From positions 64,001-128,000 of the forward strand of contig CAVTRC010000001.1 of the NCBI GenBank assembly GCA_963737065.1: a DNA stretch of 64,000 nucleotides. The letters are read 5' to 3'. This stretch comes from Candidatus Eremiobacteria bacterium. Lineage in GTDB: Bacteria > Vulcanimicrobiota > Vulcanimicrobiia > Vulcanimicrobiales > Vulcanimicrobiaceae. Under the pieces are notes generated by a model. The model searched no databases, was not told the origin of the DNA, and saw nothing but the letters and a program-made list of their open reading frames with translations. The first letter of the stretch is position 1. Each line of letters begins with the position of its first letter. Position numbers and translations under genes: made by a program. This document shows positions 1-17,497 of this stretch, piece by piece.

Positions 1-1901
1 TTCCCGGGAGACGATTACCGCGGCGATCCGCAGCGCGACGGACCCCGCTATGCTGGGCAAGCTCGTTCGTTCGATCGCGCCGAATCCACGCGCCCTGCTC
101 GATGCAGCCGCCGCGGCGATGCCGGCACATAGCCGGCTCGTTTGAAGAACTCCTCAAGCGCGGCGCGCGACACATCGTGCGCCCCACGTGCGGCCTGTGC
201 GGAGAGGCGGCGCTCTTAGAATACAAATTTCAAGACCGACGGATCTGCCGAGAATGCTACACGAAGAACCTCAAAGCGGAATGCTGCATCTGTAAACGGA
301 TGAAACAAATCTGCTCGCGCATCGATGGAAAGCCAAGGTGTGCTGCCTGTCACGTTCGCGATCCGCAAAACCACGAAATCTGCAGCATATGCAAGGCCCT
401 CGCCTATCCACGGGTGCGCCCCAACGGCCGACCAATCTGTCAGCTCTGTTACGAAGCGCCGAAGCACGTCTGCACAAACTGCGGAAAGCATGCCCCCGCG
501 CAGACGACGGAACCGCGAGTACTCTGCAAAGAGTGCTACGAAGTGATCGTCCTGGGAAAACCAGTGCGGGTCCTTCCACGCGCCAAGCACCGACCGATGC
601 GCCAGCGCGTCTGTGCAACCTGCGGTGAAAGACGGCTCTGTACCAACTTCCTTGGTGATCAGCCGAAATGCGCCGATTGCGCAGGGCGCCCGAAGCTAGA
701 ATGCGTTTCGTGCCGCAGGGAACGCCCGGTGCAGGCCATTTGGGAGATCGGTCCAGTGTGTAACACTTGCTATGACGGCAAGCGCGGTATGTGCAACCGC
801 TGCGATCATGAAGGATTGGTTATTAAGTATCGCCACAACGCAATTTGTCACGAATGCGCCGGAAAGCCGAGTCAGTCGAAATGCGGCGGCTGTGGCCATC
901 GTGAAGGGCTTTACGAACGCGGGCGCTGTGCTCGCTGTGTGCTCGACCGAAAGTTGACCGACTTGCTGCGGGACACGAGTGGGGAGTTCGCCAGCGAGCT
1001 GCTACCCCTAAAGAACCTACTTCTGGAACACCCGAGTCCTGAGTCGGTGCTCGGCTGGCTACGAAAGAGTCCAAAAGCGACTCACGTACTTGGAGCACTC
1101 GCCCGACGCGAATTGGAGGCGTCACATGTCGCATTCGACAATCTCGGCGGCGCGCCGTCCATTAGCTTCTTGCGATCTTTGTTGATGTCGAGCGCCGTTC
1201 TGCCGGAGCAGTCGCGTAACTTTTCGCTTCTGCTGCCATGGCTCGAACGTTTTCTCTCACGCTGCCCCGCGGCCCATCGACCCTTACTTTCAGCATTTGC
1301 GCAATGGCATGTCTTTCGACGACTACGCGACAAGGCGCGCTTTGGTGATATCACGGAGAGCTCCAACCGATGGGCCCGTGCGCGTTTGCGTTGCGCCGCC
1401 GTGTTCCTAAAATTTCTAGATAGCAAAGGTCATACCCTGAACACCTGTCAACAGGCCTTGCTTGATGAATGGCTAGCAGAGGGCTCGACGTCAGCGTACC
1501 TCGTGCGTGACTTCGTCTGCTGGGCATATCGCCGAAATCTGATGCGGCAACACGTTGTTCCGCTACGCAAAGTTAAGAAACCGGTCGACCCGATCGATGC
1601 GGATGCGCGGTGGGCGATCATTCGTCGCCTCATCACGGACGACACCATCCCCGTGGGTTTGCGCGTAGCCGGAGCATTAAACTTACTCTTTGGCCAGCAT
1701 GTGAGCAGAATCGTGCGCCTCACCGATGCCCATGTTATAAACATTGATGAAGAAACGTGCGTGGTGCTAGGCCGCGAACCAACTCCGCTTCCCCAACCCT
1801 TTGCTCGGCTGATCTTGGACCTCGTTAAAAGGCGGCGCAGTCAAAAGTGGAGTTGACCCGCTTCCGTGGAGACTTTCAATCTTACAGAGAAAGGTCTCCA
1901 T

Positions 1902-2213
1902 ATGGCAAAGCGCCCCACCTATCCGCCGGAATTCCGGCATAGGATCCTCGAGCTGGTTCGCTCCGGTCGCAGCGTGAATTCGATTGCCGCCGAGTTCCAA
2001 GTCGCGCGGCAATCGATCGTGAACTGGCTGAAGCAAGACGACGTTGATACGGGCCGCCGCGACGGCGGTTTAACAACGGACGAACGCAAAGAACTTGCGG
2101 CACTGCGCCGTGAAAATAAGCGCTTAAAACTCGAAGCGGAAATCCTGTCAAAAGCCGCGGCCTGGTTCGCTCGGGAAACGCACGCGGTTCCGAGCAAATC
2201 TTCGGATTCATAA
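1902..2213 (+). CDS. IS3 transposase OrfA (HTH)
   Basis: MAKRPTYPPEFRHRILELVRSG...EILSKAAAWFARE is typical IS3 OrfA. The AAAAG at 2150-2154 opens a stop-free -1 frame into OrfB. Confidence 0.9.
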   Translation: MAKRPTYPPEFRHRILELVRSGRSVNSIAAEFQVARQSIVNWLKQDDVDTGRRDGGLTTDERKELAALRRENKRLKLEAEILSKAAAWFARETHAVPSKSSDS

Positions 2214-2611
2214 AGGCGTACCAGGCCAACTATACGATTACGATGCTGTGTCATGTGCTCGACGTTTCCCCGAGCGGATACTACGCGTGGTGCAACCGAT
2301 CGCCGTCGAAGCGCCGCCAAGACGACATCGTTCTCGGCGATCAGATCGATGCGTTCTATCGGAAGTCGTATGGTATTTACGGCCGTCCGCGCTTGCATGC
2401 GGATCTTCGCGAAGCCGGCATTCGGATCTCCGGAAAGCGCCTTGCGCGGTTGATGCGCGAACGCGGAATTGTCGGCGTTTCTCGGAGGAAATCCACAGTC
2501 ACGACCATACGCGATCGGGATTCGCGTCCGGCGCCTGATCTCGTTGAGCGCAATTTCCAAGCCGATGGGCCTGACCAGCTTTGGGTCGCTGACATTACGT
2601 TGTATCTTGGA

Positions 2612-2785
2612 CCGACGCGGCGAACAACCGTCGCGAGGTGGGGATAGCACGGATATTACGTGAGGCAGCAACAGCCTGAGATGTAGATGTCGCACCCCAC
2701 TGCATTTTCAGCGCCGCAGGAGATCGGACGATAGCAAAGACGTTGCTCATCGAGCGAAGAGTCTGGATTTACAAGGCTGATCCGC
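2612..2785 (+). ncRNA. Putative bridge RNA of IS110 #1 (ends approximate)
   Basis: Non-coding left end with a 5' hairpin and two internal-loop modules. Target guides are ATATTACGT (2653-2661) and GATGTAG (2680-2686). Donor guides are ACGATAGC (2728-2735) and TTACAAG (2769-2775). Confidence 0.82.
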
Positions 2786-2821
2786 GGGTGGCGCGATTTC
2801 GATTTGAAATGTGGAGGCGCT

Positions 2822-3805
2822 GTGAAATTCATCGGGATTGATGTCTCTCGTGATAAGCTCGACTGCGCGGTAGTCGACGACTGTGGAACCGTTATTCAAC
2901 GATCGCGAGCATTTAAGAATAGCGCTGATGGCGTCGATGCGCTCCTGAAGTGGGTCGGAAAAATCGCCAGTAAGGGGCACGCGCGGTTTGTCATCGAGGC
3001 AACGGCAGCCTATCACGAGATGGCCTCACTGCGCCTTGCGAAGACCGGTGAATTCGTCGCAATCGTGAACCCATTTCACGTGCGTTCTTTAGCGCGCGGG
3101 CTAGCCATGCTCAGTAAGAGTGACGCGATTGATGCGCTCGTCCTTGCGCAATATGGGCGTCTTGCAAAGCTGCGCCGATGGGTACCGCCAGCTGCGCAGC
3201 TTGTTGATATTCAGGCTCTTTTGCTGCGGCTCGATGCGATTGAATCAGACCTCTTGCGTGAGCAGAATCGTCGCGAGCAGGCTGCAGCCAGAGAATCCGC
3301 GACGCTTGTGATTGGCTCGATTGACGCGAGTATCAAATTCCTAAAGCGTCAGCGGAAAAGCATCGAATTCGCGATCAGCAAATCGATTGAAACCGCTCCG
3401 GGTATCGCGGATGACGTCGAGCGCTTACGCTCGATCCCCGGCGTGGGCGAAAAGACAGCAAACCGCATGGCGACCATGCTGCGTATGCACGACTTTAAGT
3501 CGGCGCGTGAAGTGGCCGCCTTCTGCGGCCTCGTTCCGGTCGAGCATAAATCCGGAACGAGCGTCTATCGCAAGCCGCGACTCTCGAAGGCCGGCAACCC
3601 AAGAATGCGGGCGGCTCTATACATGGTTGCAGTCGTCGCCATGCGGTTGAACCCCGACGTCAAGGCGCTTTACGATCGACTCGTAGGACGCGGTAAAGCA
3701 AAAATGGCGGCTCTCGGTGCGTGCATGCGTAAGATCGTTCAGATATGTTTCGGCGTACTGAAGTCGGGAAAAACGTACGCCCCGCAGGCTGTTGTTAGAG
3801 CTTGA
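2822..3805 (+). CDS. IS110 DEDD recombinase/transposase
   Basis: GIDVS, IEAT and KSDAIDA (DEDD RuvC-like), SIPGVG, PVEHKSG (catalytic Ser region), SKAGN. GGAGG RBS precedes GTG 2822. Confidence 0.95.
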   Translation: MKFIGIDVSRDKLDCAVVDDCGTVIQRSRAFKNSADGVDALLKWVGKIASKGHARFVIEATAAYHEMASLRLAKTGEFVAIVNPFHVRSLARGLAMLSKSDAIDALVLAQYGRLAKLRRWVPPAAQLVDIQALLLRLDAIESDLLREQNRREQAAARESATLVIGSIDASIKFLKRQRKSIEFAISKSIETAPGIADDVERLRSIPGVGEKTANRMATMLRMHDFKSAREVAAFCGLVPVEHKSGTSVYRKPRLSKAGNPRMRAALYMVAVVAMRLNPDVKALYDRLVGRGKAKMAALGACMRKIVQICFGVLKSGKTYAPQAVVRA

Positions 3806-4679
3806 CTTCCCAGACGATATCTATATCCCGACCTGGGGTGGATTCGTATACCTCGCAATTGTGCTCGATGCTTACAGTCGTCGAGTCGTCGGCTGGGCAA
3901 CTGCTAATCACTTACGCACCGAACTTGTTCTGCAAGCGCTCAACTCATCAATCTATCGGCGACGGCCGGAAAACGTTATCCATCACTCGGATCAAGGCTG
4001 CCAATACACCTCAATCGCCTTCGGCCTGCGGTGTCGCGAAGCCAAGGTACGCCCGTCGATGGGTTCAGTCGGTGATGCATACGATAACGCGATGTGCGAG
4101 AGCTTCAACGCAACGCTCGAATGCGAACTACTTGCGCGAAGTTCGTTCAAAAGCCAGCGTGAAGCTGAACAAGCGATCTTCGCGTATATCGAGGGTTTCT
4201 ACAACCCGCATCGCCGGCATTCCGCAATCGGGTATCTCTCACCGAACAACTTCGAGCGCCGCATGAGTCATGCCGCTTGATGTCCAAGTCGCATTTCTCC
4301 GCGAAAGCGGGTCAACTCCAAAGCGCCCGAGGTTGGCATCAGGCGAATTCCTTTTGTTTCCGGGAAAGAACTACGGCAAGCCGACGACAACTGATGTGCT
4401 GAGTCATCGGTTGCAAAATATTGGAATCAGCGTACGTGCCGGCCGAAACGCTGCGCTGATGGAGATCGCGGCTAAGCTTCCCGCACCAGTGCTACGGGAT
4501 TTGCTCGGCATCCACATAAATGTGGCGGTAATTTGGAACCGCGCCGCAGGGCACAGCTATGCCAATTATGTCGGCGGTCTGAAGCGACAGAATGCTAAGA
4601 CTTAATCGGACAGTTGGCGAAGGTCGCATCGCATCCTGCCGCGTCACTGAGCGTGACGTCGGCGACGAAGGAGACGATC

Positions 4680-5714
4680 TTGACCACCGAACGCAAAGTC
4701 ATTCGTGCCAAAGTCGGCCTGCTCAACCTTGCAAAGCAGTTGGGGAACGTGCAGCAGGCCTGCAAGATGATGGGGTTTAGTCGCGATAGTTTCTATCGCT
4801 TCCAAGAGCTCTATGAAACCGGCGGTGAGGCCGCGCTCGCGGAAATCTCGCGCCGAAAACCGATCCTGAAGAACCGAATCGATCCAACGATCGAGGATGC
4901 GATCGTGACGCTCGCAATAGAACAGCCGGCGTTCGGCCAAGTGCGCGTCGCCAATGAACTCAAAAAACGTGCAATGACCGTTTCTCCCGCCGGCGTGCGC
5001 TGCGTTTGGCAGCGGCACGATCTTGAGACGATGAAGAAACGATTGAAAGCACTAGAAGCAAAAAGTGCACAGGAAGGTTTGGTTCTGACCGAAGCGCAGC
5101 TCGCAGCACTTGAGAAGGCGCAGAACGAGAAGGACGCGCACGGCGAGTTCGAGAGTGAATGCCCCGGTTATTGCGGCGCACAAGACACGTTCTACGTCGG
5201 CACGCTCAAAGGCGTCGGCCGTGTATATCAGCAGACCTTTGTCGACACGTATAGCAAAGTTGGATTCGCGAAGCTGTACCAGCAAAAGACGCCAATTACT
5301 GCAGCAGATCTGCTCAATGATCGGGTCATTCCATTCTTTGAAGAGCACGATATTCGCGTGAGCCGAATCCTCACTGATCGTGGAACCGAGTACTGCGGAG
5401 ACGTCCAGAAGCATCCTTACGAGTTGTACCTCGCAATCGAAGACATCGATCACACGCGCACCAAGGCAAAGAGCCCCCAAACAAACGGCATCGTTGAACG
5501 CCTTCACAAGACGATGCTTAACGAATTCTACCGCGTGGCATTCCGCAAGAAGATTTACCATACGGTCGACGAGCTGCAAGCCGATCTCGATGCATGGATG
5601 CGCGAGTACAACATAGAACGCACGCATCAAGGGCGCTGGTGTTACGGCAAGACGCCGATGCAGACATTTTTCGACAGCTTGGAACTCGCCAAGGAGAAGC
5701 TATTTGCAGCCTGA
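4680..5714 (+). CDS. IS481-family transposase
   Basis: N-terminal HTH ([29 protein letters not shown]) and DDE core QDTF / LTDRGTEY / [18 protein letters not shown] precedes TTG 4680. Confidence 0.9.
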
Positions 5715-5835
5715 GTTTAGCGCCATTGGAACGATCCGACACTCAGCGACGCGATCATGCGCCAACCACGACAGACAACGAAAACCCCGAAGATTATCGA
5801 TTGCGTAGCACAGCACACTGGTACCTGCCGTGCCA

Positions 5836-6114
5836 TCAACGTTGCCGCGAGTTGCCATCAAACTCGCCAAATACCTGCTGAAGCGTTGCATATGCTCTGT
5901 CTTCGCGGGCGTATGCACGCCCAACGATCCGGCAATTAAGCAGCGCGAGCAATACTGCCGCCACGAACGCAGTGCCCACGATCACCCAATGAGGAAGCGT
6001 TTTCACCGTTACCGCCTCATAGCCAAGAATGATCAAAGCCGCATTACCAGCGAGGCTCGCTATGAATATCGAAGTCAATTGCTTCCCTTCGTTCAGCCGA
6101 TTAGCCATATTCAC
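5836..6114 (-). CDS. Small hypothetical membrane protein (2 TM)
   Basis: 92-aa ORF with two hydrophobic stretches. No recognisable family. Confidence 0.4.
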   Translation of the reverse strand: MNMANRLNEGKQLTSIFIASLAGNAALIILGYEAVTVKTLPHWVIVGTAFVAAVLLALLNCRIVGRAYAREDRAYATLQQVFGEFDGNSRQR

Positions 6115-6237
6115 GCAACCGAACCCCGCTCGGTAGATGCACGTGGCTTGCGAAGTCGACGTTGAAAATGGAGGCTTGATACATCCTGTTGTTGACGCCG
6201 GGTGAAAAGTGACCCACTTTGCTAGGGGATCGCCGGT

Positions 6238-8050
<1,813 letters not shown>

Positions 8051-8100
8051 CGCGACCTTGCGTTCGCGTTAGATCAGGTGGAACGGCTTAGTCAACTCTG

Positions 8101-9174
8101 TTAGGCGGCGACTTCAATACTATTCTGACTATTGCGCGCAAGTCGGTCTTGCATCGGTTGTAACCGATAAAACACAACCGTTGCCAGCTGCCGTTTGTGA
8201 GAACGCATCGCAGCTCGATGCGTCTTGCCCTCAGCTCGCTTACGCGCATAATAGAGTTGGCCCGGATGATTGCGCGTGCGGTTTTGGACCAACGCAATAA
8301 CATGGAGTAATCGATTGAGCTGACGATCACCACCGGTGTTGACACGGACGCTCGCGTTGCGACCGCTCGAACACGGAACGGGCGCCGCCCCGGCGCGCAT
8401 CGCGAAGCTCGCGGCATTGCGATACATGCAAAGATTGCCGGCATGTCCAATGATCCCGGCAGCAACGACAATGGAAACGCCTCGAAGCTCCAGCAATTCG
8501 GGCGCAAGGCGCTTAACGAAAGGGCGCAGTTGGCGTTCCAGCTGATTCACTGCAGCATTGAGCCGGCGGATTTCCGAGATCGCCTCGTCGACCTCATCAG
8601 CAAGCGCATCACCGGTATAGCTCTTACCGCGATGACCCGTTAGAAGATCTGCTGCATTCTGCAATGCAATTTCGGTGGTCATGTTCGAGGGCAGCGGTCC
8701 AATCGCCAGCCGCAATGCGGCATCCCGCAGCCGATTTACAGCCTCCGTCCGCTGTCGCACAAGTCGATCGCGGCGATCATAACGTAACCGGACTGCTTCC
8801 TGTTCATCCAGACGTTCGCAACGCCGCAAGCGATCGGATTCGCGCAGAACTGCTTCGGCAATCGCTCGAGCGTCGAGTGGATCGGATTTTCCTCTTCGGC
8901 TTGCGTGTTTGCGGTGACGTTTAGTGAACGAACCTGGAACCTCGTATACGACGGCGTTGCTTTTCAGCAGAGCATCGGCGAAGCCACGTCCGAACGAACC
9001 ACTTCCCTCAAGACCCCATTCAACGGTGCCAAACGACCGTGCTCTTTCGATCGCAGTCGCATACCCTGCGGCGTTCGTTGCAATGGTGATCTCCGAGAGC
9101 GCTTTCCCAACTCCATCAACGAATACGATGGTGTGAGAATCCTTGTGACAATCGACGCCCGCAACGACGCGCAT
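8101..9174 (-). CDS. IS110 DEDD recombinase/transposase
   Basis: AGVDCHK, GLEGSG, GKSDPLDA, PVPCSSG, GGDRQLN. AAGGAG RBS. Confidence 0.95.
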   Translation of the reverse strand: MRVVAGVDCHKDSHTIVFVDGVGKALSEITIATNAAGYATAIERARSFGTVEWGLEGSGSFGRGFADALLKSNAVVYEVPGSFTKRHRKHASRRGKSDPLDARAIAEAVLRESDRLRRCERLDEQEAVRLRYDRRDRLVRQRTEAVNRLRDAALRLAIGPLPSNMTTEIALQNAADLLTGHRGKSYTGDALADEVDEAISEIRRLNAAVNQLERQLRPFVKRLAPELLELRGVSIVVAAGIIGHAGNLCMYRNAASFAMRAGAAPVPCSSGRNASVRVNTGGDRQLNRLLHVIALVQNRTRNHPGQLYYARKRAEGKTHRAAMRSHKRQLATVVFYRLQPMQDRLARNSQNSIEVAA

Positions 9175-9194
9175 GCGTTCTCCTTTTATGCGAG

Positions 9195-9335
9195 GTTACC
9201 GCAGACGTCGGCGATCCCTTATTGAGCATTTGCACTCGGCTTACCAGCCAAAACGCGCTGCGGAAAAGACGCGCCTGCCGGCCATTCCACCCCAAGTCAA
9301 TCCGACTGTCAATTTTGGAGCCAGAGCAGACGCAC
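9195..9335 (-). ncRNA. Putative bridge RNA of IS110 #2 (ends approximate)
   Basis: Minus-strand guides AAAATTGAC (9308-9316) and GGGGTGG (9287-9293) flank an AGTC/GACT hairpin and match the target. TAAGCCG (9237-9243) and ATAAGG (9217-9222) flank a second hairpin and match the donor junction. Confidence 0.75.
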
Positions 9336-9476
9336 CCTAATCATACATATAAGGGTCAATTTTCAACCGGCGGGGTGGGTCAACTTTACTCCGGCGCTAA
9401 CACTGTCCTTTTCTTAGTTTCGCCGCGATTCGAATTTCGAAAGAGACAGATTGCGCGAATATTGCCATTGTGCAGT

Positions 9477-9700
9477 TGGAGTTGATCGATTATCGTGGAT
9501 AGTTTTTTGATCGGAGCCTACGCAGCATGTTCCCGCTCGAAGTCGATTGGCCAGAGATAGTTGAGTCGCGAGTGCGCACGGTGCGCGTTGTACCACGATT
9601 CAATGAACGTGAAGATCGCTATACGAGCCTCACTCTGCGCTTTGAATCGCCGCCTTGCGAGCAGCTCGGCATTCGAGCGTGGCAAAGAAACTCTCGCACG
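9477..9700 (-). pseudogene. IS3 OrfB 3' fragment with degenerate terminal repeat
   Basis: ELLARRRFKAQSEARIAIFTFIESWYNAHRAHSRLNY resembles the OrfB C-terminus at ~4130-4280. TGGAGTTGA at 9477 resembles the IS3 inverted repeat. Confidence 0.75.
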
Positions 9701-9754
9701 TCGCAGTACCTTAGGATTCGGCGGACATCGTTTCAACGTTCAAGGATAACACCG

Positions 9755-9870
9755 CGTGGACGAATATCAGCGCAAACGCCTCGCATGGATTCGCTTTTTG
9801 AGCAGTGGAACGATGCTGGAAAGGTCTGCCTGAAATGCGGAATCTCTCCCCCGACGCTGCGTAAATGTCT
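9755..9870 (+). pseudogene. Transposase N-terminal HTH remnant (IS481-like)
   Basis: Reads MDEYQRKRLAWIRF / EQWNDAGKVCLKCGISPPTLRK across a frameshift, then is truncated. Confidence 0.55.
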
Positions 9871-10190
9871 GGGAGCACCATAAGGTCCATGGGATCACCA
9901 GCTGTGCCAAGGCATTCGGCCGCTCGAGCAACTCTGGCGTCGTCGATTCCGATAGGGTAACATCGTAACCGGCCACCGCTTCGTCCTCTCGGTTAAGAAG
10001 TTCGTCGTAAAGCAAATGTTCCGAACCGAAACGCTGGCTCCTCGTCTTTACAGCATTTTAAGAGACGTCATCACTGGGCACAGTACGTCGGAATTCGAGC
10101 TAACAATATTGACGTAGAACGACCAGCAGGATTCGACACGGCTTAAACGAGCGATCCTAAATGGCTTCGTAATTCCAGGAGGATCCGTAT

Positions 10191-11789
10191 TTGAAACTGG
10201 TTCGCATTGCGCTAGTGCTCGTTTCGTCGCTAATCGTGGTTGCATGCTCACACAGTTTCGGGTCCATCTCATCCAGAACAGCGCCACAGGACGACGAGTG
10301 GGTGACGTATGGCCATGATTACGGGAATAATCGCTTTTCTACATCGCAGCAGATAAATCGGACGAATGTTAGCCAGCTCGTGCCGCGTTACGTTGCTCAG
10401 ACAGGCGTCGTTGGACCGTTTGAAGCCTCCCCCATTGTTGCGGGCGGGGTAATGTATGTGTCGACCCCATACGACGGAATTATTGCGATAAATGCAACAA
10501 CGGGGAAGAGCATTTGGCGGCGCCCACCCCTCACTGGAAATTTTCTCCAGTGTTGTGGTCCGGTAAATCGCGGCGTCGCGATTTCTGGAAATCGCGTCAT
10601 CATTGGACAACTCGACGGCGTTTTGGTTGCGTTAGACGCCAAGACCGGGATGGTTCAATGGACCGCCGAGGTAGCCGACAATACAAAGGGTTACAGTATA
10701 ACGATGGCGCCTCTGATCTATCACGACACGGTGATCGTCGGAGTGGGAGGAGGCGAATTTGGAATACGAGGCTTCTTGGCGGCCTATCATGTCCGAGATG
10801 GAAAACTCAAATGGCGATGGTATGCGACGGATTCACGTCACTGGTTTGGAACGACAGCCCGACTTCGCACCGATGAAGGGCTCGCAAGTGAAGCCGAATC
10901 CCAGCAATTACGTGCACGATTTTCGAACTCATGGCAACGCGGCGGGGGCGGGATTTGGACGTCTCCAGCCATAGACCCACAAACTCGTACGATTTTCGTG
11001 GCGACCGGCAACCCGTGGCCGATGTCGCGCGGAACATCGCGGCCCGGGGACAATCTCTATACGGATTCGATCGTCGCTCTTGATGCAGACACTGGTCGCA
11101 TGAAGTGGTACTTCCAGCAAACGCCTCACGATGTCGACGACCTCGACGCGGCGTCGCCTCCCCTGCTTTTCGATACTGTTGACACTGCTGGCCATTCGTT
11201 ACGTGCTCTGGGCGAGATCGGTAAAACCGGAATCTTCTATATTCTCGACCGCTCCAATGGCCATCTCATCCGCCAGTCGCGCCCATTGCTGCGCGGTATT
11301 ACACCCATCAATAGTCGGCAGCGCTTTGCAGGCGGAAGCACGTGGTCACCAGTCTCATTCGATCCGAGGTTAGGATACGCGATAGTGACGGTGACCGCCC
11401 GTCCTCTTGCCGAAGGAAACGTCAAGAGAGGCGCGTTTGATGCGACCGCGTGGAACGCCGCATTTGGAACCGTCTCCGCGATTTCCGTCACAAGCGGACA
11501 TGTGATATGGCAAGATTGGTTCAACGAAGGAGTTGTGGGTGGCTCATTATCGACTGCCGGCGACCTCACATTTGTTGGTGAAGGGGGCGGGTACTTTGAC
11601 GCGCTTGACACGAAAACCGGAGAACGGTTGTGGCATTTCGAAACGGGCGCCGGCGTCAACGCTCCTCCGATCACTTACACGATCGACGGGCACCAATATG
11701 TTGCTGTAGCCGTTGGTGGCAACCAGCAACTTGGGACGCAGTACGGCGATGCTATTTTTGCGTTCACGCTCTTCGACGATGGACCTTAA
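10191..11789 (+). CDS. PQQ-dependent dehydrogenase (alcohol/methanol family beta-propeller), probable lipoprotein
   Basis: Lipobox VVAC, WVTYGHD, vicinal CC (CCGPVNRG), GGEFGIRG, TGNP, WYFQQTPHD, GHQYVAV and Trp-docking repeats. Confidence 0.9.
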   Translation: MKLVRIALVLVSSLIVVACSHSFGSISSRTAPQDDEWVTYGHDYGNNRFSTSQQINRTNVSQLVPRYVAQTGVVGPFEASPIVAGGVMYVSTPYDGIIAINATTGKSIWRRPPLTGNFLQCCGPVNRGVAISGNRVIIGQLDGVLVALDAKTGMVQWTAEVADNTKGYSITMAPLIYHDTVIVGVGGGEFGIRGFLAAYHVRDGKLKWRWYATDSRHWFGTTARLRTDEGLASEAESQQLRARFSNSWQRGGGGIWTSPAIDPQTRTIFVATGNPWPMSRGTSRPGDNLYTDSIVALDADTGRMKWYFQQTPHDVDDLDAASPPLLFDTVDTAGHSLRALGEIGKTGIFYILDRSNGHLIRQSRPLLRGITPINSRQRFAGGSTWSPVSFDPRLGYAIVTVTARPLAEGNVKRGAFDATAWNAAFGTVSAISVTSGHVIWQDWFNEGVVGGSLSTAGDLTFVGEGGGYFDALDTKTGERLWHFETGAGVNAPPITYTIDGHQYVAVAVGGNQQLGTQYGDAIFAFTLFDDGP

Positions 11790-12477
11790 GGACTCCCGGC
11801 GAGTCGTATAGATAACCATCTATTTTCGAGCGGCGCGCGCTGCTAAGACCGGCGCGTTGAAGGATCGAGTCGATCGCGGCGTAGTCAGCTGACACCCCTT
11901 CCGGGGCAATGTCACGGAACACACCCAACTCCAGCCGTAACATGCTCATCGCGCGTTCGTCGAGGCGCGTAATTCTGTTGTAGCGGTATTCTCGTTTTGT
12001 TTTTAACTTGTCCGCTTGGATCGCCGCGACATACTGCTCGCGCGCCTTCGTATCTTGGATATTTTTCGGGTCGGTGCAGGGCGGAAGTGATCGCCCATCC
12101 GGTTCTCGGGGTGGGATTATACAACCCTGTGGGCGGTTTTTGGGGTCGAGAGGATCATAGCCCGGTTCATAGGCCTTTTCGATCACCGCAAGCACGTTCG
12201 CCCATCCTTGCACGAAGCTTCGACGGGTCGCGATGAAGTTGTTAGGTGTCAGTAACTGAACGTCGACGGAACCATCCATCGCGTCCTCTGCAGTTTCAAG
12301 ATCATCGAGCGAGTGCGACGTTTCATATCGCTGCAACGCTTGAGCAGACGAATTGACATGAGTTGACGTAAGCGCTTCTGCTGCGACCATGCGAGTATCG
12401 GCGATAGATACACCCTCGCACCACATAGACATTATCAGGAACCCAGCAATGACGCGTGGACGTGCAATAGTAATCAT
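11764..12477 (-). CDS. Hypothetical secreted protein
   Basis: 237-aa ORF with a signal-like N-terminus and GAGG RBS. Directly follows the 12484-13455 ORF. Confidence 0.7.
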   Translation of the reverse strand: MITIARPRVIAGFLIMSMWCEGVSIADTRMVAAEALTSTHVNSSAQALQRYETSHSLDDLETAEDAMDGSVDVQLLTPNNFIATRRSFVQGWANVLAVIEKAYEPGYDPLDPKNRPQGCIIPPREPDGRSLPPCTDPKNIQDTKAREQYVAAIQADKLKTKREYRYNRITRLDERAMSMLRLELGVFRDIAPEGVSADYAAIDSILQRAGLSSARRSKIDGYLYDSPGVLKVHRRRA

Positions 12478-12483
12478 CCTCAG

Positions 12484-13455
12484 TTACTGCCCTGGATAAC
12501 TTGAAGTTGGATTATTTACCGCGCTCGTTGCGCTATTATGGTCCTTCGAGAGCGTAAGTGCACCAGCGGTGTTTCCCGTCGCCTGTTGCGTTATTGTGGG
12601 TCCGAAAGTGCGCCAATTCCCAACTAGACTGTACTGCGTCGGGATAGGAGCCGTCTCTACACTATTCTGGAATTGATTGCCTGGGCACGAGCCCGAGTAA
12701 GCGTTATCGGTTCTGCTGAGCAACGTGCCACGACCGGGCACGACCGTCGTAGTCATCGGCTGCCCTGGCGCCGGTGTAAGGGGACCGCTTTGGCACCACC
12801 AGTCGCCGGGGTTTGTTGCGGTTGTCATCGCAGAGCCTTCTTGCTCGCTTACGGCCGCGAACGAGACGCTATCCGGGTACAGGTAAACGTTAGAATTAAA
12901 GCCGATGTCTGCTAAGCCTTGCGTGTGTCGAAGGAGCCCGTCGCCAAAATAATAAGCTTGCGATGGCGCGATCACCGTGACTGTCAAATCAGTTTCTTGA
13001 CACCCTTTGGTTCCGAGCCCGTACACGGCGACGTCGATTGTCCCCGGAGTATTTACATCGGTTAAGTCCCCCGCAGTTATCGTTGCAGGGGTTCTTGAGC
13101 TGCTCAGGTGATCGGTAGTCCCTGTCGGGGTCGCAATAATCATGTTCGAGCCATTCGATGAAATCTGAACCTGCTCGCCGACGCCAATCGTCGTGCGATT
13201 CTGCGGTTGAGGCTCAGTATCGACATCAGTTAACATAAGCGTGCAAGACGGATTTCCGCCGCTGCCGCCGCTTCCGCCTCCGCATTTATAATAATTACCG
13301 TCTTTATAGCACAGTGACTGCGGCGTCACGCGAAACCTGCCGCTATCCCGGCTGGTATAATCGTGCATTACCGGGACCGAAGACTGACGGCCGCCACAAG
13401 CCACTAAAGTGGAGAGCAGGCCAAGTGCGGCTATGAGCGGCGCAATGAGTCGCAT
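12484..13455 (-). CDS. Hypothetical lipoprotein, Thr/Gly-rich
   Basis: Lipobox LVAC, GGGSGGSGG linker, GAGG RBS. Confidence 0.75.
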   Translation of the reverse strand: MRLIAPLIAALGLLSTLVACGGRQSSVPVMHDYTSRDSGRFRVTPQSLCYKDGNYYKCGGGSGGSGGNPSCTLMLTDVDTEPQPQNRTTIGVGEQVQISSNGSNMIIATPTGTTDHLSSSRTPATITAGDLTDVNTPGTIDVAVYGLGTKGCQETDLTVTVIAPSQAYYFGDGLLRHTQGLADIGFNSNVYLYPDSVSFAAVSEQEGSAMTTATNPGDWWCQSGPLTPAPGQPMTTTVVPGRGTLLSRTDNAYSGSCPGNQFQNSVETAPIPTQYSLVGNWRTFGPTITQQATGNTAGALTLSKDHNSATSAVNNPTSSYPGQ

Positions 13456-13664
13456 TTCACAACCTCGCTAACGCCACGCCCTCGCGCGGCAAACTAGCAC
13501 ATCTACGACAGGCGCTGAGGTATCAAGGAAGCCAAGGAAATTCGTTGCGGTTTGCGCGTACGCGAAATTTATTCTACGCCCACACTTTTACACCGTGCGG
13601 TGATGATATACCTAATCGGAATGTGAGGCAAGAGGACGAACCATCTTGCTTGCTAATAAGACTT

Positions 13665-14969
13665 TAGAGTAGCCCCTTAAATCCCCGGACACGGCAAGTC
13701 TCCATCTAAGTGTTAGGAGAATGCCTGTGTTTATGCCTAGTTCGAGAGAGACCATTGACGTTATGACGTCGGTCCAGCGTCGTCGCCGCTGGTCGGCGAA
13801 CGAGAAGGTGCGTATCGTCAACGAGACCTATCAGCCCCGCGCGTCAGTTTCGGCCGTCGCCCGTCGTCACGGCATCGCGCCGAACCCGCTCTTCCAATGG
13901 CGCCGTCTTGCAGCGCAGGGGGCGATATCTGCCGTCGGTGCCAGCGAAGAGCTCGTTCTGGCCTCAGAATTTTAGTCGCTGCAACTGCAGAACGGTGAAC
14001 TCCAGCGGCTGCGCGGTGAGAAACGATGGAGAACGAGATTGTTCACGAAGCGCTCGCATTCGGCGCATCAAAAAAGTGCATATCGCACGCGCCGCCATCG
14101 TTGCCGCCCATCCACGACGAACAGCAGCGACGGTTGCGCGTCCGATTGGTACTTGTCGTTCCGTACTCACGGTTAAGCTGAAGAGCGGCAAGCGTCGTGT
14201 AAAGCGTTGCCAAGTCGCGAGCTTCTCGAAGAGATTCGTGCGGTTATCGAGGAGCGCTCCAGCTATCGATATCGTGCGTGAGCATACTTCCACGTAGGCG
14301 ACGTCTGCGCGGCGAGCTTGGACGGAATCGCAAGCGCGTGTACCGCGTAATGAAGGCGAACGGGTTGCTACTGGAACGTTCCACCAGTGATACCGGCGAA
14401 CGGCACCATGATGGAAGATCGCCGTTGCGGAAAGCAACTTGCGCTGGTACTCCGACGGCTTTTACGATTTCATGCGATACTGGCGAACGCGTGAATGTTG
14501 CATTTACGCTCGATTGTTGCGATTCGCGAAGCGATGGATGGAAATCGGCACGTCCGGTGTGATCGCGGGCGATCATATCCGCTTCTTGATGATCGCGAGC
14601 ATCAAGAAGCCATTCGTCGGTGAGACGCCCGAACACGCGATTCAATGGCTTTCGAACAACGGCTCAATGTATACGGCACGCGATACGCGCAACTGCGGTC
14701 CTATGATCGGTCTCAGTCGTCGACGCAGCGTCCGTCCGAAGCCCACAATCGATCGGGATGGCCGAAGCGTTCGTCTAGACAATGAAGCGAGATTATGTCG
14801 CTGTGCACGGAGCTCCGGACGCGATCACCGTGCTTAAGAATCTTCCTCGATCGATTGAGGAGTACAACGAAAATCAGCCGCACAAGGCTCTCGGATATCG
14901 GTCGCTAAGAAAATTCAGACGCTCAAAGCTAAGTAAGATCGCCTGAACGGAATTTTACCGGCAACTCCA
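13665..14969 (+). mobile_element. Degenerate IS3-family (IS2-like) element
   Basis: OrfA RRRRWSANEKVRIVNETYQP...VARRHGI. Frameshifted OrfB pieces RWYSDGF, IQWLSNNGS and EEYNENQPHKALG. Imperfect ends TAGAGTAGCC / GGCAACTCCA. Confidence 0.8.
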
Positions 14970-15420
14970 GCCGCACCGCGCACCTGTTTGCACGGTTTGT
15001 CCGCTCTCGCGCCAGACGGTCTCGTGATCGTATCGAAGCCGAAGGTGCGCTGAACCGTAGCGAGCCGGAACTCCGAAAGGCGATTGCTTTCGCGCAGCAC
15101 AGTTTGCGCGACTGAGCGGGCATCGTTATCGTCTGACTTTCCGCGCTGCGTGCTGGCACGTCGATTATGCTTGGTGCATACGCCGGCAACTTCGACACGA
15201 GTGCGCGGCGGCGGCCCAGTGAATCGCAAACGCATATCCGTATAGAGACGGACCCTTCGACTCCCCAAACGCAACAGCCGAGCTTCGAGCTTCCGCAACC
15301 GCGCTCTCGTAGCTCTCAGTGTTCGTCAGAAATCTTAGGCTTCCAAGAGCCTGGCCGGCGGAATCGATAAAACCGGCGGTGTTCGTAGATTTATGGCAAT
15401 AAAGCCGGCAACAACTCGCA
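14970..15420 (-). pseudogene. IS110 transposase remnant related to the gene at 8101-9174
   Basis: Fragments CHKSTNTAGFIDSAGQALG, EVAGVCTKHNRRASTQRGKSDDNDARSVAQTVLRE and RDRLARERT lie in shifting frames. Confidence 0.8.
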
Positions 15421-15639
15421 AGTGTGCGTGCGCGTTCGAAGGTGTCCACGAAACTCGAACCAGCCGAGACGTCGATCACCAAGCACTTGTTGGGCGCGCC
15501 ACGAGCGTGCCATAAGAACGACACAAGAATACGGCGTGGTTTGAATAGGTGTACCTTACCAGTAATAGCTAAATTGTCGTGGTGACGTGACGTGTGCATA
15601 ATGTGACTTAAGAGTTCGTAAATTCCTAGCCGCACAAAC

Positions 15640-15672
15640 AAAAAAGGCCGAGGAAAAGCCGCCGGCTTTTTT
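15640..15672. terminator. Bidirectional terminator-like hairpin
   Basis: AAAAAAAGGCCG...CCGGCTTTTTT with A and T tails. Confidence 0.45.
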
Positions 15673-16813
15673 ATTGACGGATTCTCAGGATGCGCCCGCT
15701 ATTTGGAACGTCGCGTGTACGCCATGAGCGCATCATTGGTGAAATTAACGTTTGAAACACGGCGTGTACACGTCGAAGATCGTTAGACCGATCGCGCGAC
15801 CGTAATGCGGTTCGCTGCCTCCACCTTGGATTACGGATCCCGCCGGCAAGAGGCGCTCCGCCGATCGCGCGTGATGCTTGTCGAAACCGACCGCGAGCGT
15901 GCCGTGCAGGACCGTATATATCGCGTAAATGTTATGGTTCGTATGCCACGGATAAATGAAACCCGCGGGAAAACTTCATTCGAACCAAGTTGTCGCAGAC
16001 ATCCGAGTTCCTCCCGCGAATCACCGCATAAAAGCTTCCGGTCCCTTTCCCGGTATCAGCGATCCAGTGTACCTGGTTCGGAAGCGTATACGTGGTTTGC
16101 GAGGCGGCGCCGGCTGCACGCCAAGAGCGCAGATCGCAATCGCGGCCGGCAAAGCTAAGCGAAAACGGAAACGACCCATTTTACTCCTTTTCAAATTGGC
16201 ACTTACCCCATCTCGCAAAGCACTGGAGATTTCGCGGCGCCAAGCGTGAGCAGCGCGTACGCGCTTCGGATTCGGTGCGTCACTAGCGAAAGCGTTTCTA
16301 CTTCTCGGGAGAGATAGCGGGTGGTCTCCGTTCGGTGCGCAAGCGATGAAGCCTATCAAAACTTCGCGCATCGTAATCGACAGCAGCACTGCGCCGAAGA
16401 ACGGACGGGTCTTCTCGTCGCATTCAAACGGCTCGTGCCATCCTTCTTCGTGGTCTGTGAATCACCGAAACGAAACGATGCGAACGCGTGTTGACTCGAG
16501 GATGATAATGGGACTTAGGAGATGGGCATGCCGCATAATCGGACTTACAGTGATAATGTCACTAGCGCCTAGCTAAATAGCTAAAGAGCTTAAACGTCCG
16601 GAATCCCATTTGATGCAACGTTCTCGCCTCTGATGGGACGCTCACGAACGCATGAAGAGGCAGCGCTCGCGCTGCCTTTGTTTAGGCAGTGAAGGATGCA
16701 CAGAGACCGGGACAGGAAGCTGGTTCCGTCAGCAAGCCCAAACCTTGCGCGGGAGCGGCGCTCTATAGAAACCCCATAGAGTCAAACAACCGCTTCTGGA
16801 GAAAGAAAGTCGA

Positions 16814-17497
16814 GTGATTGATGTCACGAGTGCTAAGGCGCGCCGACGCTTCTATCTGGAGCGTGGGATGCGCAAACGACCGAGCGGGGGCGGCAGCAAT
16901 TTCGCATTTCTCATGGCGCTTCCAAGAACTCCACTTCCGATGAAGCCGGAAGAGATCTTCGAAGACGTCGCGTTCGTCGTGATAGGCGGTGTTGCAACGC
17001 GTGCTTACGCTCCCGAGCGTTCCACCAAAGACATTGACTTCATGGTTGAGCACGACCGTTTCCAAGATGCCACTACGCAACTGCGTACGCACGGGTTTAC
17101 CAAAGTAACCGAACTATTTTTTCCAAACACGACGCTTGGACTCCACGGCGAAGCGTGGACTAAGGATTCACTTGAGATAGACATTATGTCTAGTCCGCAG
17201 GAATGGTGCAAAAAGGCCTTCGGTGGACGAGTTGAAGACGAAACCGGACTTCGCGTTATTCCCCTGCCATATCTTGTGCTCATGAAATTCGACTCAGCAC
17301 GAGGTATCGATCAGGGCGATCTTACACGAATGCTAGGTCCGCTTGACGACGAGAAGATCGAACAAATCGTTAGAGTCGTCGAACGGTATTCCGGCGATCC
17401 CGGTGCAGGCGATGAAATCCGTCAATATGCTCTACTTGGTCGTTGGGAGCTTCAAAATAGCACTCGCAAAGCCAAACGAGGAGATGCTGCACGATGA
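16814..17497 (+). CDS. Nucleotidyltransferase-family protein (start uncertain)
   Basis: hGG motif (VVIGGVA) and DxD (RSTKDIDF), plus LVLMK and DQGDL. Confidence 0.75.
   Translation: MIDVTSAKARRRFYLERGMRKRPSGGGSNFAFLMALPRTPLPMKPEEIFEDVAFVVIGGVATRAYAPERSTKDIDFMVEHDRFQDATTQLRTHGFTKVTELFFPNTTLGLHGEAWTKDSLEIDIMSSPQEWCKKAFGGRVEDETGLRVIPLPYLVLMKFDSARGIDQGDLTRMLGPLDDEKIEQIVRVVERYSGDPGAGDEIRQYALLGRWELQNSTRKAKRGDAAR

Follow-up and report, generated by a model that had tools for sequence, protein, structure and literature searches.

IS110-family elements at conserved sites of IS3- and IS21-family transposons in a Candidatus Eremiobacteria genome, with putative bridge RNAs matching those sites

Why should two IS110-family elements at one locus each lie inside another insertion sequence, and is this chance, common descent or targeting? 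The stretch of DNA analysed here (the window) comprises 64,000 nt of Candidatus Eremiobacteria bacterium (GCA_963737065.1, contig CAVTRC010000001.1, positions 64,001-128,000, forward strand). A preliminary description had proposed a gene split by an IS3 element, itself split by one IS110 element (IS110#1), followed by an IS21 element that carries another (IS110#2). We found all of these elements as placed there, give or take a few bases, together with an IS481-family element, absent from that description, which overlaps the last codons of the split (host) gene. The features are as follows.

102..1847, +, 5' part of the host gene; open frame, Cys-rich N-terminus, colinear with an intact homologue
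1845..1847 and 4321-4323, AAG target-site duplication of IS3, read from the sequence
1848..4320, +, IS3-family element, 1251 bp without its insert; splits the host gene
1902-2213, +, IS3 orfA (HTH_Tnp_1)
2243-2600 plus 3823-4280, +, IS3 orfB; the pieces carry HTH_21 and rve/rve_3
2601..3822, +, IS110#1, 1222 bp, inside IS3 orfB; limits from the junctions and an identical second copy
2822..3805, +, IS110#1 transposase, 327 aa from GTG or 333 aa from TTG at 2804 (PF01548 and PF02371)
4324..4605, +, host gene, 3' part; continues the frame of 102-1847 when 1848-4323 is taken out
4594..5766, +, IS481-family element (NF033577, 281 bits); limits from identity with one or more further genomic copies
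6186-6189 and 9403-9406, CTGT target-site duplication of IS21, read from the sequence
6190..9402, -, IS21-family element, 1940 bp without its insert; terminal repeats of type TTGACCCACC at both ends
6238-7032, -, IS21 istB (PF01695, Pfam E 2e-88)
7025-8050, -, IS21 istA (NF033546, 297.5 bits)
8080..9353, -, IS110#2, 1273 bp; ends 8080/8081 and 9352/9353
8101-9174, -, IS110#2 transposase (PF01548 and PF02371)
9476..9720, -, IS3-family relic with an inverted-repeat-like end and an orfB C-terminal fragment (inverted repeats; tblastn 57.7% over 52 aa, E 6.7e-13)
13673..13972, +, IS3-type orfA relic (HTH_Tnp_1, Pfam E 1e-16)
14968..15398, -, decayed, frameshifted N-terminal fragment like IS110#2, residues about 9-156 (tblastn E 1.4e-12)

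The claim that removing each insert restores exactly what it interrupts was borne out, either by an open frame after computed removal or by an empty site in relatives. Computationally joined, 102-1847 and 4324-4605 give 676 aa with zero stops, and the product follows an intact 732-aa homologue (L059:1204-3399:-), residues 8-579 of the N-terminal part corresponding to 69-636 and residues 1-69 of the C-terminal part to 640-710. The two pieces of IS3 orfB likewise join into 272 aa with zero stops, reading LWVADITYIPTWGGFV over the join, and the -1 frame is open across 2129-2600. Besides this orfA/orfB -1 arrangement the element has the TG..CA inverted repeats (IRL 1848-1872 and IRR 4296-4320, 92% complementary) and the 3-bp duplication of the IS3 family, and NF033516 matches orfA only partially (43 bits, under the cut-off) because the gene is split. 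IS110#1 was inserted after ..GACATTACG(T) and before ATATCCCG.., dividing orfB so that DIT is encoded on one side and YIPT on the other. IS110#2 sits between the second IS21 terminal repeat, ...AAAATTGACCC, and ACCTGATC..., 29 nt upstream of the istA ATG, with limits uncertain by 1-2 nt, since both junctions have CC. Its host has the IstA and IstB genes and the multiple terminal repeats of the IS21 family, in which duplications are typically 4-8 bp; those found here are CTGT and, in a second copy, CGTGC.

Both IS110 elements combine N-terminal DEDD/RuvC-like and C-terminal Tnp domains by profile matches, and both exceed the cut-off of 140 bits for NF033542, “IS110 family RNA-guided transposase” (203.3 bits for IS110#1, 159.5 for IS110#2), although there is no kinship between the two at the sequence level (best tblastn E 0.89). 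They are scarless and without terminal inverted repeats, with junctions (G/C)T and CC respectively. The junctions had been described as intact, but IS110#1 has GT on the left and CT on the right, so that the T alone is common and the first core position is mismatched. The order of insertion, also said to be recoverable, follows from the logic of nesting, yet composites can move as units (as in genome G092, below), which leaves the order at this locus short of strict proof.

In the genome-wide inventory, which the preliminary description had suggested, every well-preserved copy of either IS110 lies within IS3 or IS21, at one site for each element. Both copies of IS110#1 (2/2) occupy the identical base of both copies (2/2) of the window-type IS3, of which this genome has no intact copy, and all three IS21 copies carry IS110#2 at the same site: the window copy in IS21a, the copy at C1:1245627 in IS21b, and in IS21c a truncated element with the same right junction. 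Beside one further copy of IS110#2 (C2:574416) an IS21 end persists on the left side; C1:1-6512, 98.97% identical to it in sequence with 21 gaps, is probably the same locus. The insertions had been called recent, in agreement with the identity of the copies, 1222/1222 bases for IS110#1 and 1272/1275 (99.8%) for IS110#2 in IS21a and IS21b.

One explanation would be that each IS110 entered its host only once and that the composites then spread as units, the common site reflecting nothing but ancestry. Some of our data look like this. The two IS3::IS110#1 copies are near-identical in both their IS3 and IS110 parts and could go back to one insertion, after which the composite moved: their IS3 portions have 18 differences, 15 of them within one 52-bp patch, and the 3 outside the patch against 0 in IS110#1 are not significant. 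IS21b and IS21c, both with IS110#2, have istA genes 99.3% identical, three loci of genome G092 have 2.46 kb of IS110 plus IS3 in common, and L003/4/5 have diverged from the window to a similar degree in IS110 (70-74%) and in OrfB (76%). On the other hand, a split orfB is unable to mobilise itself, and in this genome it has no intact sister copy to rely on. The two partners can also tell different histories. The bodies of IS21a and IS21b are only 84-87% identical (istB 693/795, istA 866/1029, spacer 25/29) around an IS110#2 that is 99.8% identical, their left junctions differ by one C, and their duplications are CTGT and CGTGC. Similarly, relatives of IS110#1 (56-74% aa identity) occupy the corresponding codon in IS3 transposases only 33-52% identical among themselves, after DIT and before I(P/R/A) of OrfB in L003/4/5, L006, L007 and L008; in the last three the IS110 elements are 74-83% identical against 33-47% for their host OrfB (83% against 37% for L006 versus L008). 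This incongruence refutes descent of the composites as the sole cause, and together with the match of the guides to the flanks (see below) makes it a very unlikely account of the pattern.

The same sites are also found empty. All nine uninterrupted IS21 relatives (9/9, IstA 59-77% identical) have ...AAAATT(G/T)(A/C)CCCACC(T/C)G... at the position of IS110#2, and the target of IS110#1 is uninterrupted in the intact IS3 orfBs of L001 and L030. This is the pattern of IS110 elements that target other transposons (ISEc21, IS1383 or IS4321 type): all or most copies at one conserved site in another mobile element, a site that also occurs uninterrupted. Could this be a pile-up, in which insertion is untargeted and selection spares only the copies that have landed in DNA the cell can do without, other ISs for instance? 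The region is certainly an IS cluster (IS3, IS481, IS21 and the three relics at 9476-9720, 13673-13972 and 14968-15398), and IS481 also adjoins IS110 copies. However, survivors of random insertion would hardly agree to the base, and in orientation, in diverged hosts, and since repeats of at least 300 bp make up only 1.08% of the genome the identical insertion points are unlike random insertion. Moreover, the distant relatives L012-L022 occupy ordinary intergenic sites to which their own guides correspond, an IS domain being present in 0 of the 9 assessable flanks, and L009 and L048, though outside ISs, have sites similar to the IS targets. We therefore regard untargeted insertion as extremely unlikely. 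Homing into ISs, as had been suggested for this lineage, agrees with the inventory, the relatives and the covariation of guides with flanks, but it is not exclusive: about 17 of the 25 contexts of the IS110#2 clade are inside or adjoin other ISs, and L009 and the other 8 of these 25 (L048 included) are non-IS sites resembling the guides or are not assessable.

A third possibility is that old insertions have been kept identical by concerted evolution, their apparent recency and independence being an illusion. The 49-bp IS21 left end beside IS110#2 is identical in IS21a and IS21b (49/49), next to bodies that agree at about 85%, and the 52-bp IS3 patch with its 15 differences resembles a conversion tract; judging from these sequences, some gene conversion between the two IS21 left ends may have taken place. 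Against it as a general explanation, the tract would have to end exactly at the IS110 right end, since the second base of the flank is already mismatched. The right end of IS21 likewise exceeds the body in conservation (67/71), so that conserved ends are to be expected anyway. The same-site insertions would stand even so. All in all, we consider this reading highly improbable.

What could direct the elements to these sites is suggested by their left ends, which contain the following putative bridge RNAs and guides.

2601..2821, +, IS110#1 left end, about 221 nt, with a predicted bridge RNA (alignment of 18 relatives, guide-flank matches)
LTG 2651-2661, RTG loop 2678-2688, LDG 2726-2735, RDG 2768-2776, +, predicted IS110#1 guides
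9175-9353, -, IS110#2 left end, about 179 nt, with a predicted bridge RNA
LTG 9307-9316, RTG loop 9284-9293, LDG 9235-9245, RDG 9216-9223, -, predicted IS110#2 guides

By consensus folding, each left end carries a conserved RNA structure with a pair of internal loops. RNAalifold gave 41 pairs, 25 with compensatory changes, for the IS110#1 clade (18 sequences) and 26 pairs, 16 compensatory, for the IS110#2 clade (16 sequences); an Rfam search returned zero matches. The guides vary with the flanks. In the first clade (18 elements) nine LTG plus eight RTG positions match the element's own flanks at a mean of 14.1/17, against 8.6/17 for the flanks of other elements, and in the second (15 elements) the ten LTG positions match at 8.3/10 against 3.9/10. 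The LDG in turn co-varies with the right end, GACGATA being found with GACGATA and GACGGTA with GACGGTA. In the window, IS110#1 matches at 8/9 positions of the LTG and 6/8 of the RTG (one of the two mismatches is a G:T wobble), with an exact LDG (7 nt) and RDG (6 nt). For IS110#2 the matches are 9 nt exact (LTG), 5 nt plus a wobble (RTG), 7 nt (LDG) and 6 nt (RDG); its LTG match stops 2 nt short of the junction, and LTG and RTG share no single core dinucleotide. In both elements we predict by inspection a -35 box at the right end and a -10 box at the left end, which the predicted circle junction would bring to a spacing of 17 nt (TTGACT-17 nt-TATCTT and TTGACT-17 nt-TATGAT).

We think it very probable that the two different IS110 elements, both of the IS110 subgroup of the family, use a bridge RNA from their left end to target short sequences that other transposons must keep. 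The RNA would direct scarless insertion in a single orientation, and recombination in these two elements would then be RNA-guided. For IS110#1 the target would be the DNA for the first catalytic Asp motif of IS3-family OrfB (W..D-I-T-Y-I-P), GAYATYAC[C/G]T|AYATCC, so that insertion splits the transposase gene and presumably inactivates the IS3, which precise excision of the IS110 might restore. For IS110#2 it would be the second terminal repeat of the IS21 left end, ..AAAATTGACC|CACCTG.., which we take to be an IstA-binding site, and insertion would part that end from istA. Sequences of this kind occur in many copies, are conserved, move horizontally and do the host cell no harm. This makes them safe landing pads, and every IS110 copy would travel within its host IS. 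Disruption of IS3 orfB and occupancy of all copies may reflect competition between the elements.

Homing into transposons has already been described for a few IS110 elements; the members and the target sites found here are new. ISEc21 (Siddiquee et al., 2024, Nat Commun, PMC11187229) is reported as an IS110-type element with the guide RNA encoded in the upstream non-coding region that targets IS3 DDE codons. As described there its target is the second D, whereas IS110#1 uses the first D motif (DITY|IP), and the hosts in our case are environmental MAG-type genomes. Muller et al. (cited in PMC11208160) reported that IS1383 targets IS1384 at its inverted repeats, and targeting of Tn21 ends by IS4321/IS5075 is cited in the same place. 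They resemble IS110#2 as IS110/IS1111-family elements with specific insertion into another element's terminal repeats, the difference being that its host is an IS21 and its site the internal second repeat of the left end. Furthermore, IS4321 and IS5075 belong to the IS1111 subgroup, with the non-coding region downstream, in agreement with the introduction of PMC11187229. IS621 recombination (Durrant et al., 2024, PMC11208160; Hiraizumi et al., 2024, PMC11208158) shows further likenesses: a left-end RNA with a target-binding and a donor-binding loop, an LTG equal to the top-strand left target sequence and an RTG complementary to the top-strand right target, a CT core tolerant at its first position, and a promoter split between right end and left end, a principle given in PMC11208158. 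The tolerance described there would cover the GT target and CT donor of IS110#1. IS621 targets REP-like sites and its LTG and RTG overlap on one core dinucleotide. The core of the IS110#2 clade is instead of the TC/CC type, and LTG and RTG of the window copy differ in register. REP sequences are also the targets of ISPpu9 and ISPpu10 (Tobes and Pareja, 2006); a repeated, conserved and non-essential sequence is again the landing pad, provided by host repeats instead of other transposons.

More speculatively, and with somewhat less than even confidence, one IS110 clade in this bacterial order may have radiated as a guild of transposon hyperparasites, whose guides track conserved features of their rivals and act as an RNA-guided brake. 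Among close relatives, guides would be tuned to the codons for the first Asp and for Glu in the DDE motif of IS3, to its A7G frameshift heptamer, to the spacer preceding IS3 orfA, to a stretch directly upstream of an IS256 transposase gene and to the IS21 terminal repeat. The elements might shut down or mark all copies in a genome, and a brake on other ISs would also benefit the host. The new target classes (IS3 first-Asp motif and IS21 terminal repeat, with the IS3 frameshift site and Glu motif in relatives) provide well-resolved natural cases that lengthen the short list of RNA-guided IS110s with transposon landing pads, with evidence that includes empty sites, repeated targeting of diverged hosts and guide-target covariation. 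Judging from sequence, one IS family may inactivate another genome-wide, which bears on models of transposon load. Pairs such as L006 and L009, 94% identical as IS110 elements yet with different guides and different targets, illustrate how bridge-RNA guides get retuned in nature, and such cases are relevant for picking natural bridge recombinases with known, conserved targets.

The third, decayed IS110 that had been noticed at 14970-15420 was recovered as the minus-strand fragment listed above, whose ORFs gave zero matches in a Pfam search. As for the host gene, Pfam and NCBIfam profile searches found no domain to back the earlier label “recombinase-like”. The ESM Atlas look-alikes of its homologue do agree with the label: they are clusters auto-named XerD, tyrosine recombinase or integrase (scores 0.98-0.90), and from these names the gene is probably a divergent tyrosine recombinase.

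Four insertion sequences, two nested, are packed into the opening 9.9 kb of the window, and relics lie from 9476 on.

Mobile elements and relics at the start of the window (window coordinates)
1848-4320, IS3-family element with inverted repeats of 25 nt, 92% complementary
2601-3822, plus strand, IS110#1 (1222 bp), inside the IS3 element and interrupting its orfB
4594-5766, IS481-family element overlapping the last codons of the gene split by IS3
6190-9402, minus strand, IS21-family element (IS21a), flanked by a CTGT duplication and with IstA and IstB both intact
about 8080-9353, same orientation as istA, IS110#2 (1273 bp), inside IS21a
9476-9720 and 13673-13972, relics of IS3-type elements
14968-15398, frameshifted IS110#2-like fragment (E 1.4e-12)

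The nested anatomy put forward in the preliminary description (one IS110 in IS3, another in IS21) was borne out by the junctions, the duplications and the stop-free rejoined frames; its third, decayed IS110 corresponds to the frameshifted fragment, and the IS481-family element was absent from it. The IS3 target duplication AAG, read from the sequence, occupies 1845-1847 and 4321-4323. This IS3 has an HTH_Tnp_1 domain in orfA and HTH_21 plus rve/rve_3 in the two orfB pieces, which rejoin computationally without a stop (LWVADIT/YIPTWGGFV, the slash marking the join). IS110#2 separates the second terminal repeat at the left end of IS21 from istA, whose start codon lies 29 nt downstream of the insert. 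Both IS110 proteins pass the 140-bit cut-off of the NCBI "IS110 family RNA-guided transposase" (203.3 bits for IS110#1 and 159.5 for IS110#2), and tblastn detected no similarity between them (E 0.89). An Rfam scan of window positions 1-17000 with E up to 1 matched no family.

The Cys-rich gene split by IS3 (102-1847 and 4324-4605) gives a joined frame of 676 aa with no internal stop, its pieces aligning in order with an intact homologue of 732 aa that another genome of the family carries (L059:1204-3399). The gene is a member of a family without annotation, about 680-730 aa long and with numerous CxxC pairs at the N-terminus. A search of 150 other family genomes found it in 3, two of which (G072, G075) have it split or frameshifted. 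The gene had been called recombinase-like, for which the sole basis was found in ESM Atlas look-alikes of the homologue, in clusters auto-named XerD or tyrosine recombinase (scores 0.98-0.90); neither the pieces nor the homologue matched any Pfam or NCBIfam family, with only zinc-ribbon hints (E 0.012), and phmmer against PDB sequences gave no meaningful match for the gene.

The genome containing the window measures 3.08 Mb in two contigs (C1 and C2), and repeats of at least 300 bp make up 1.08% of it. In a genome-wide IS110 inventory, a check proposed in the preliminary description, every well-preserved copy of IS110#1 or IS110#2 was found to reside in IS3 or IS21, and IS110-free copies amounted to 0 of 2 for this IS3 and 0 of 3 for IS21.

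IS110#2 copies, related fragments and a further IS110 in the same genome
Window, IS110#2 inside IS21a
Second IS21 copy (IS21b, C1:1243750-1246970), IS110#2 inside
Third IS21 copy (IS21c), IS110#2 truncated towards its left end, with the right junction as in the others
C2:574416-575655, IS110#2 with an IS21 end remnant still on its left
C1:381875-382491, decayed IS110#2-like fragment, the flank keeping only CACCT of the target
C1:2420666-2421607, unrelated third IS110 type whose gene has two TGA codons in frame, 33 bp past an IS481-like end

In both decayed fragments (14968-15398 and C1:381875-382491) the RT-like CACCT flank is present, with only an IS3 orfA relic, 1 kb off. At C2:574416-575655 the last 60 nt of IS110#2, and whatever stood beyond, are replaced by an IS481 copy (C2:575682-576854, equal to C1:1082-2251); as this copy abuts the 3'-truncated IS110#2 with unrelated DNA beyond, an IS481-associated deletion is suggested. 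C1:1-6512 matches the end of C2 (574606-581124) at 98.97% with 21 gap openings. The start of C1 and the end of C2 are probably one locus assembled twice at overlapping contig ends, and copies there are therefore not to be counted twice.

The two copies of IS110#1 are identical in 1222 of 1222 bases; their IS3 has just two copies in the genome, and both carry the insert at the same base. These IS3 copies differ at 18 positions, 15 of which fall in a single 52-bp patch of orfA in the second copy (C1:1286182-1288654), seemingly a conversion tract or the product of rearrangement between IS copies. The second copy is without the 3-bp duplication, its flanks reading ..CTAC and GTGG... One insertion followed by movement of the composite fits this pair equally as well as two separate events, and the two histories are indistinguishable here.

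IS21a and IS21b have diverged in istB (693/795 identical), istA (866/1029) and the 29-nt spacer (25/29), whereas the IS110#2 copies within them are identical at 1272 of 1275 positions. Divergence restarts at the second base past the right end of IS110#2, the left junctions differ by one C, and the duplications are CTGT and CGTGC, respectively. This pattern agrees with IS110#2 having entered the two long-diverged IS21 elements on separate, recent occasions. Some gene conversion at the IS21 left end is possible, since its 49 nt are identical (49/49) in IS21a and IS21b; the right end (67/71) is also better conserved than the body. On the sequence comparisons, composites carrying IS110 do also appear to spread as units: the istA genes of IS21b and IS21c are 99.3% identical, and in another genome (G092) 2.46 kb of IS110 plus IS3 are common to three loci.

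Empty sites were found for both hosts. IS21 relatives from other family genomes, with IstA 59-77% identical, have a left end that is uninterrupted and without IS110 in 9 of 9 cases (a count that leaves out L071, from an unpublished genome), reading ...CCGG(T/A)TGAAAATT(G/T)(A/C)CCCACC(T/C)G.... Removal of IS110#2 gives exactly this site and restores the repeat motif TTGACCCACC, which is found at the other IS21 repeats as well. The 60-nt left end scarcely varies from genome to genome among these relatives (L068-L070 and L072-L077), and it thus constitutes a stable landing pad. In the intact IS3 orfBs of L001 and L030 the site GAYATCACGTACAT(T/C)CC is uninterrupted.

A DNA-level search of 200 other family genomes, with two candidates per genome scored, gave no close copies of IS110#1 or IS110#2, the best matches covering parts only (72% and 67% identical, respectively). 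Relatives of IS110#1 (clade 1) were collected as 25 loci from one metagenome scan. The nearest, L003, L004 and L005, are 70-74% identical in amino acids to the window element and mutually identical where they overlap; L006, L007 and L008 are at 56-58%. All six sit in the orfB of an IS3-family element, immediately past the DIT codons and ahead of I(P/R/A). When L006, L007 and L008 are compared with one another, identity is 74-83% for the IS110 proteins and 33-47% for the host OrfB pieces, so the same codon has been struck in different IS3 lineages. More distant clade 1 relatives (44-50% aa) lie between ordinary genes, with an IS domain adjoining in 0 of the 9 whose flanks were assessable, six further contigs being too short to judge.

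The relatives of IS110#2 (clade 2) were gathered by searching 353 genomes of the order at protein level, with a match in 18, and by adding two loci from a contig scan. We counted about 25 distinct contexts, the window's genome excluded, after merging L050 and L055 with L041 and L057 with L053, taking L051 as the tandem partner of L032, and examining L048 and L049 separately. About 17 of the 25 have another IS around them or no more than about 300 bp away.

Clade 2 elements in or beside other insertion sequences
L035, L037: A-rich frameshift site between IS3 orfA and orfB; L044 likewise, in the opposite orientation
L040, L041, L056: IS3 orfB, exactly at the I-E/S-F-N codons, TC common to both junctions
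L002: IS3 orfB, slightly downstream of the I-E/S-F-N site
L032, L034, L042: upstream of IS3 orfA; L038 likewise by flank similarity only
L031: directly upstream of an IS256-type transposase gene
L030: adjoins IS3 orfB
L001: adjoins IS3 orfB, with an IS256-type gene on the other side
L043: adjoins IstA
L036: adjoins IS605 TnpB
L049: adjoins an IS3 fragment and another IS110

The E of the I-E codons is the Glu of the IS3 DDE motif. No IS was found at eight contexts, L029, L033 (short contigs), L039, L045, L047, L048, L052 and L053; the neighbour of L052 is a phage-type integrase, and L048 carries the L035 element once more, here at a non-IS site whose sequence departs from the frameshift target at a few bases. 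At L032/L051 (G252:C83) two different clade 2 genes, their proteins 55% and 50% identical to that of IS110#2, stand in tandem beside an IS3 left end. L002 (3501-6889) presents the reverse nesting, an IS110#2-like gene (49-53% aa) split by an opposite-strand IS21-type istB, with this whole unit embedded in the 3' portion of an IS3 orfB.

This kind of behaviour is already known; what is added here are new members, new target sites and the clade-wide tendency. Müller et al. reportedly found that IS1383 targets the inverted repeats of IS1384. The target of ISEc21 (IS110 family) was traced to certain IS3-family members by Siddiquee et al. (2024; PMC11187229). A literature search, with the 2024 supplementary target tables outside it, turned up no IS110-family element described as inserted in IS21 terminal repeats or at the first-Asp motif, the frameshift site or the Glu motif of IS3; such sites may be listed in those tables. 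Searching for nested IS110, or IS110 in another insertion sequence, gave only unrelated papers, and the accessible part of a 2026 preprint on expanded IS110 loci makes no mention of IS3, IS21 or nesting.

Left-end alignments show a conserved RNA with two stem/internal-loop modules. In these alignment-based structures, which replace MFE folds of single left ends, RNAalifold predicts 41 pairs for 18 clade 1 sequences (25 with compensatory changes) and 26 pairs for 16 clade 2 sequences (16 with compensatory changes). Clade 1 conforms to the IS621 bridge-RNA model of Durrant et al. (PMC11208160). Its left and right target guides (LTG9 plus RTG8) match their own flanks at a mean of 14.1/17, vs. 8.6/17 for the flanks of other elements (18 elements, 306 cross pairs, duplicates L004, L023 and L024 dropped). 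Changes in the donor guide are mirrored in the right end (GACGATA/GACGATA, GACGGTA/GACGGTA), and the right donor guide (RDG), TACAAG, complements CT plus TGTA. In IS110#1 of the window the LTG (2651-2661) matches at 8/9 and the RTG loop (2678-2688) at 6/8. The core is CT in the relatives and GT in the window target, hence the junctions GT (left) and CT (right) of IS110#1; IS621 tolerates GT, AT and TT cores (PMC11208158).

For clade 2 the agreement of the 10-nt LTG with the element's own left flank is 8.3/10, vs. 3.9/10 for others (15 elements, 210 cross pairs, six duplicate or unalignable rows dropped). The LTG of IS110#2 has a 9-nt exact match (AAAATTGAC), its RTG loop pairs with CCACC(T), its left donor guide (LDG) agrees with TAAGCCG in the right end and its RDG with the start of the left end; in L035 and L037 the LTG reads TAAAAAAAGT. 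The register differs from that of IS621, in which LTG and RTG overlap on a shared core. In IS110#2 (9284-9316; junctions about 8080 and 9353) the LTG match to the left flank stops 2 nt short of the junction and the RTG covers the junction CC, and the two guides are therefore without overlap on one core. A core "AC" register, derived from the LTG alone, was rejected because the empty site it implies is shorter by 4 nt than that of 9 of 9 relatives.

Homing of IS110 elements into other ISs, as proposed, is well supported by this comparative evidence as sequence-directed and very probably RNA-guided. L009, 94% identical to L006 in its transposase, sits in an ordinary gene (..KPDYT/YVPAL..) at a site resembling the IS3 orfB motif occupied by L006, and its LTG and RTG differ accordingly, apparently a natural case of retargeting between close relatives. 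Insertion of IS110 may silence the host IS, might thereby be of benefit to the cell, and could perhaps be reversed by excision, as had been proposed. A look through public sequencing runs for window positions 1700-4500 gave no hit. In both IS110#1 and IS110#2 a TTGACT in the right end and, by inspection, a -10-like hexamer of the left end are 17 nt apart when measured across the predicted circle junction, the same arrangement of promoter-like boxes split over the two ends as described for IS621 (PMC11208158).
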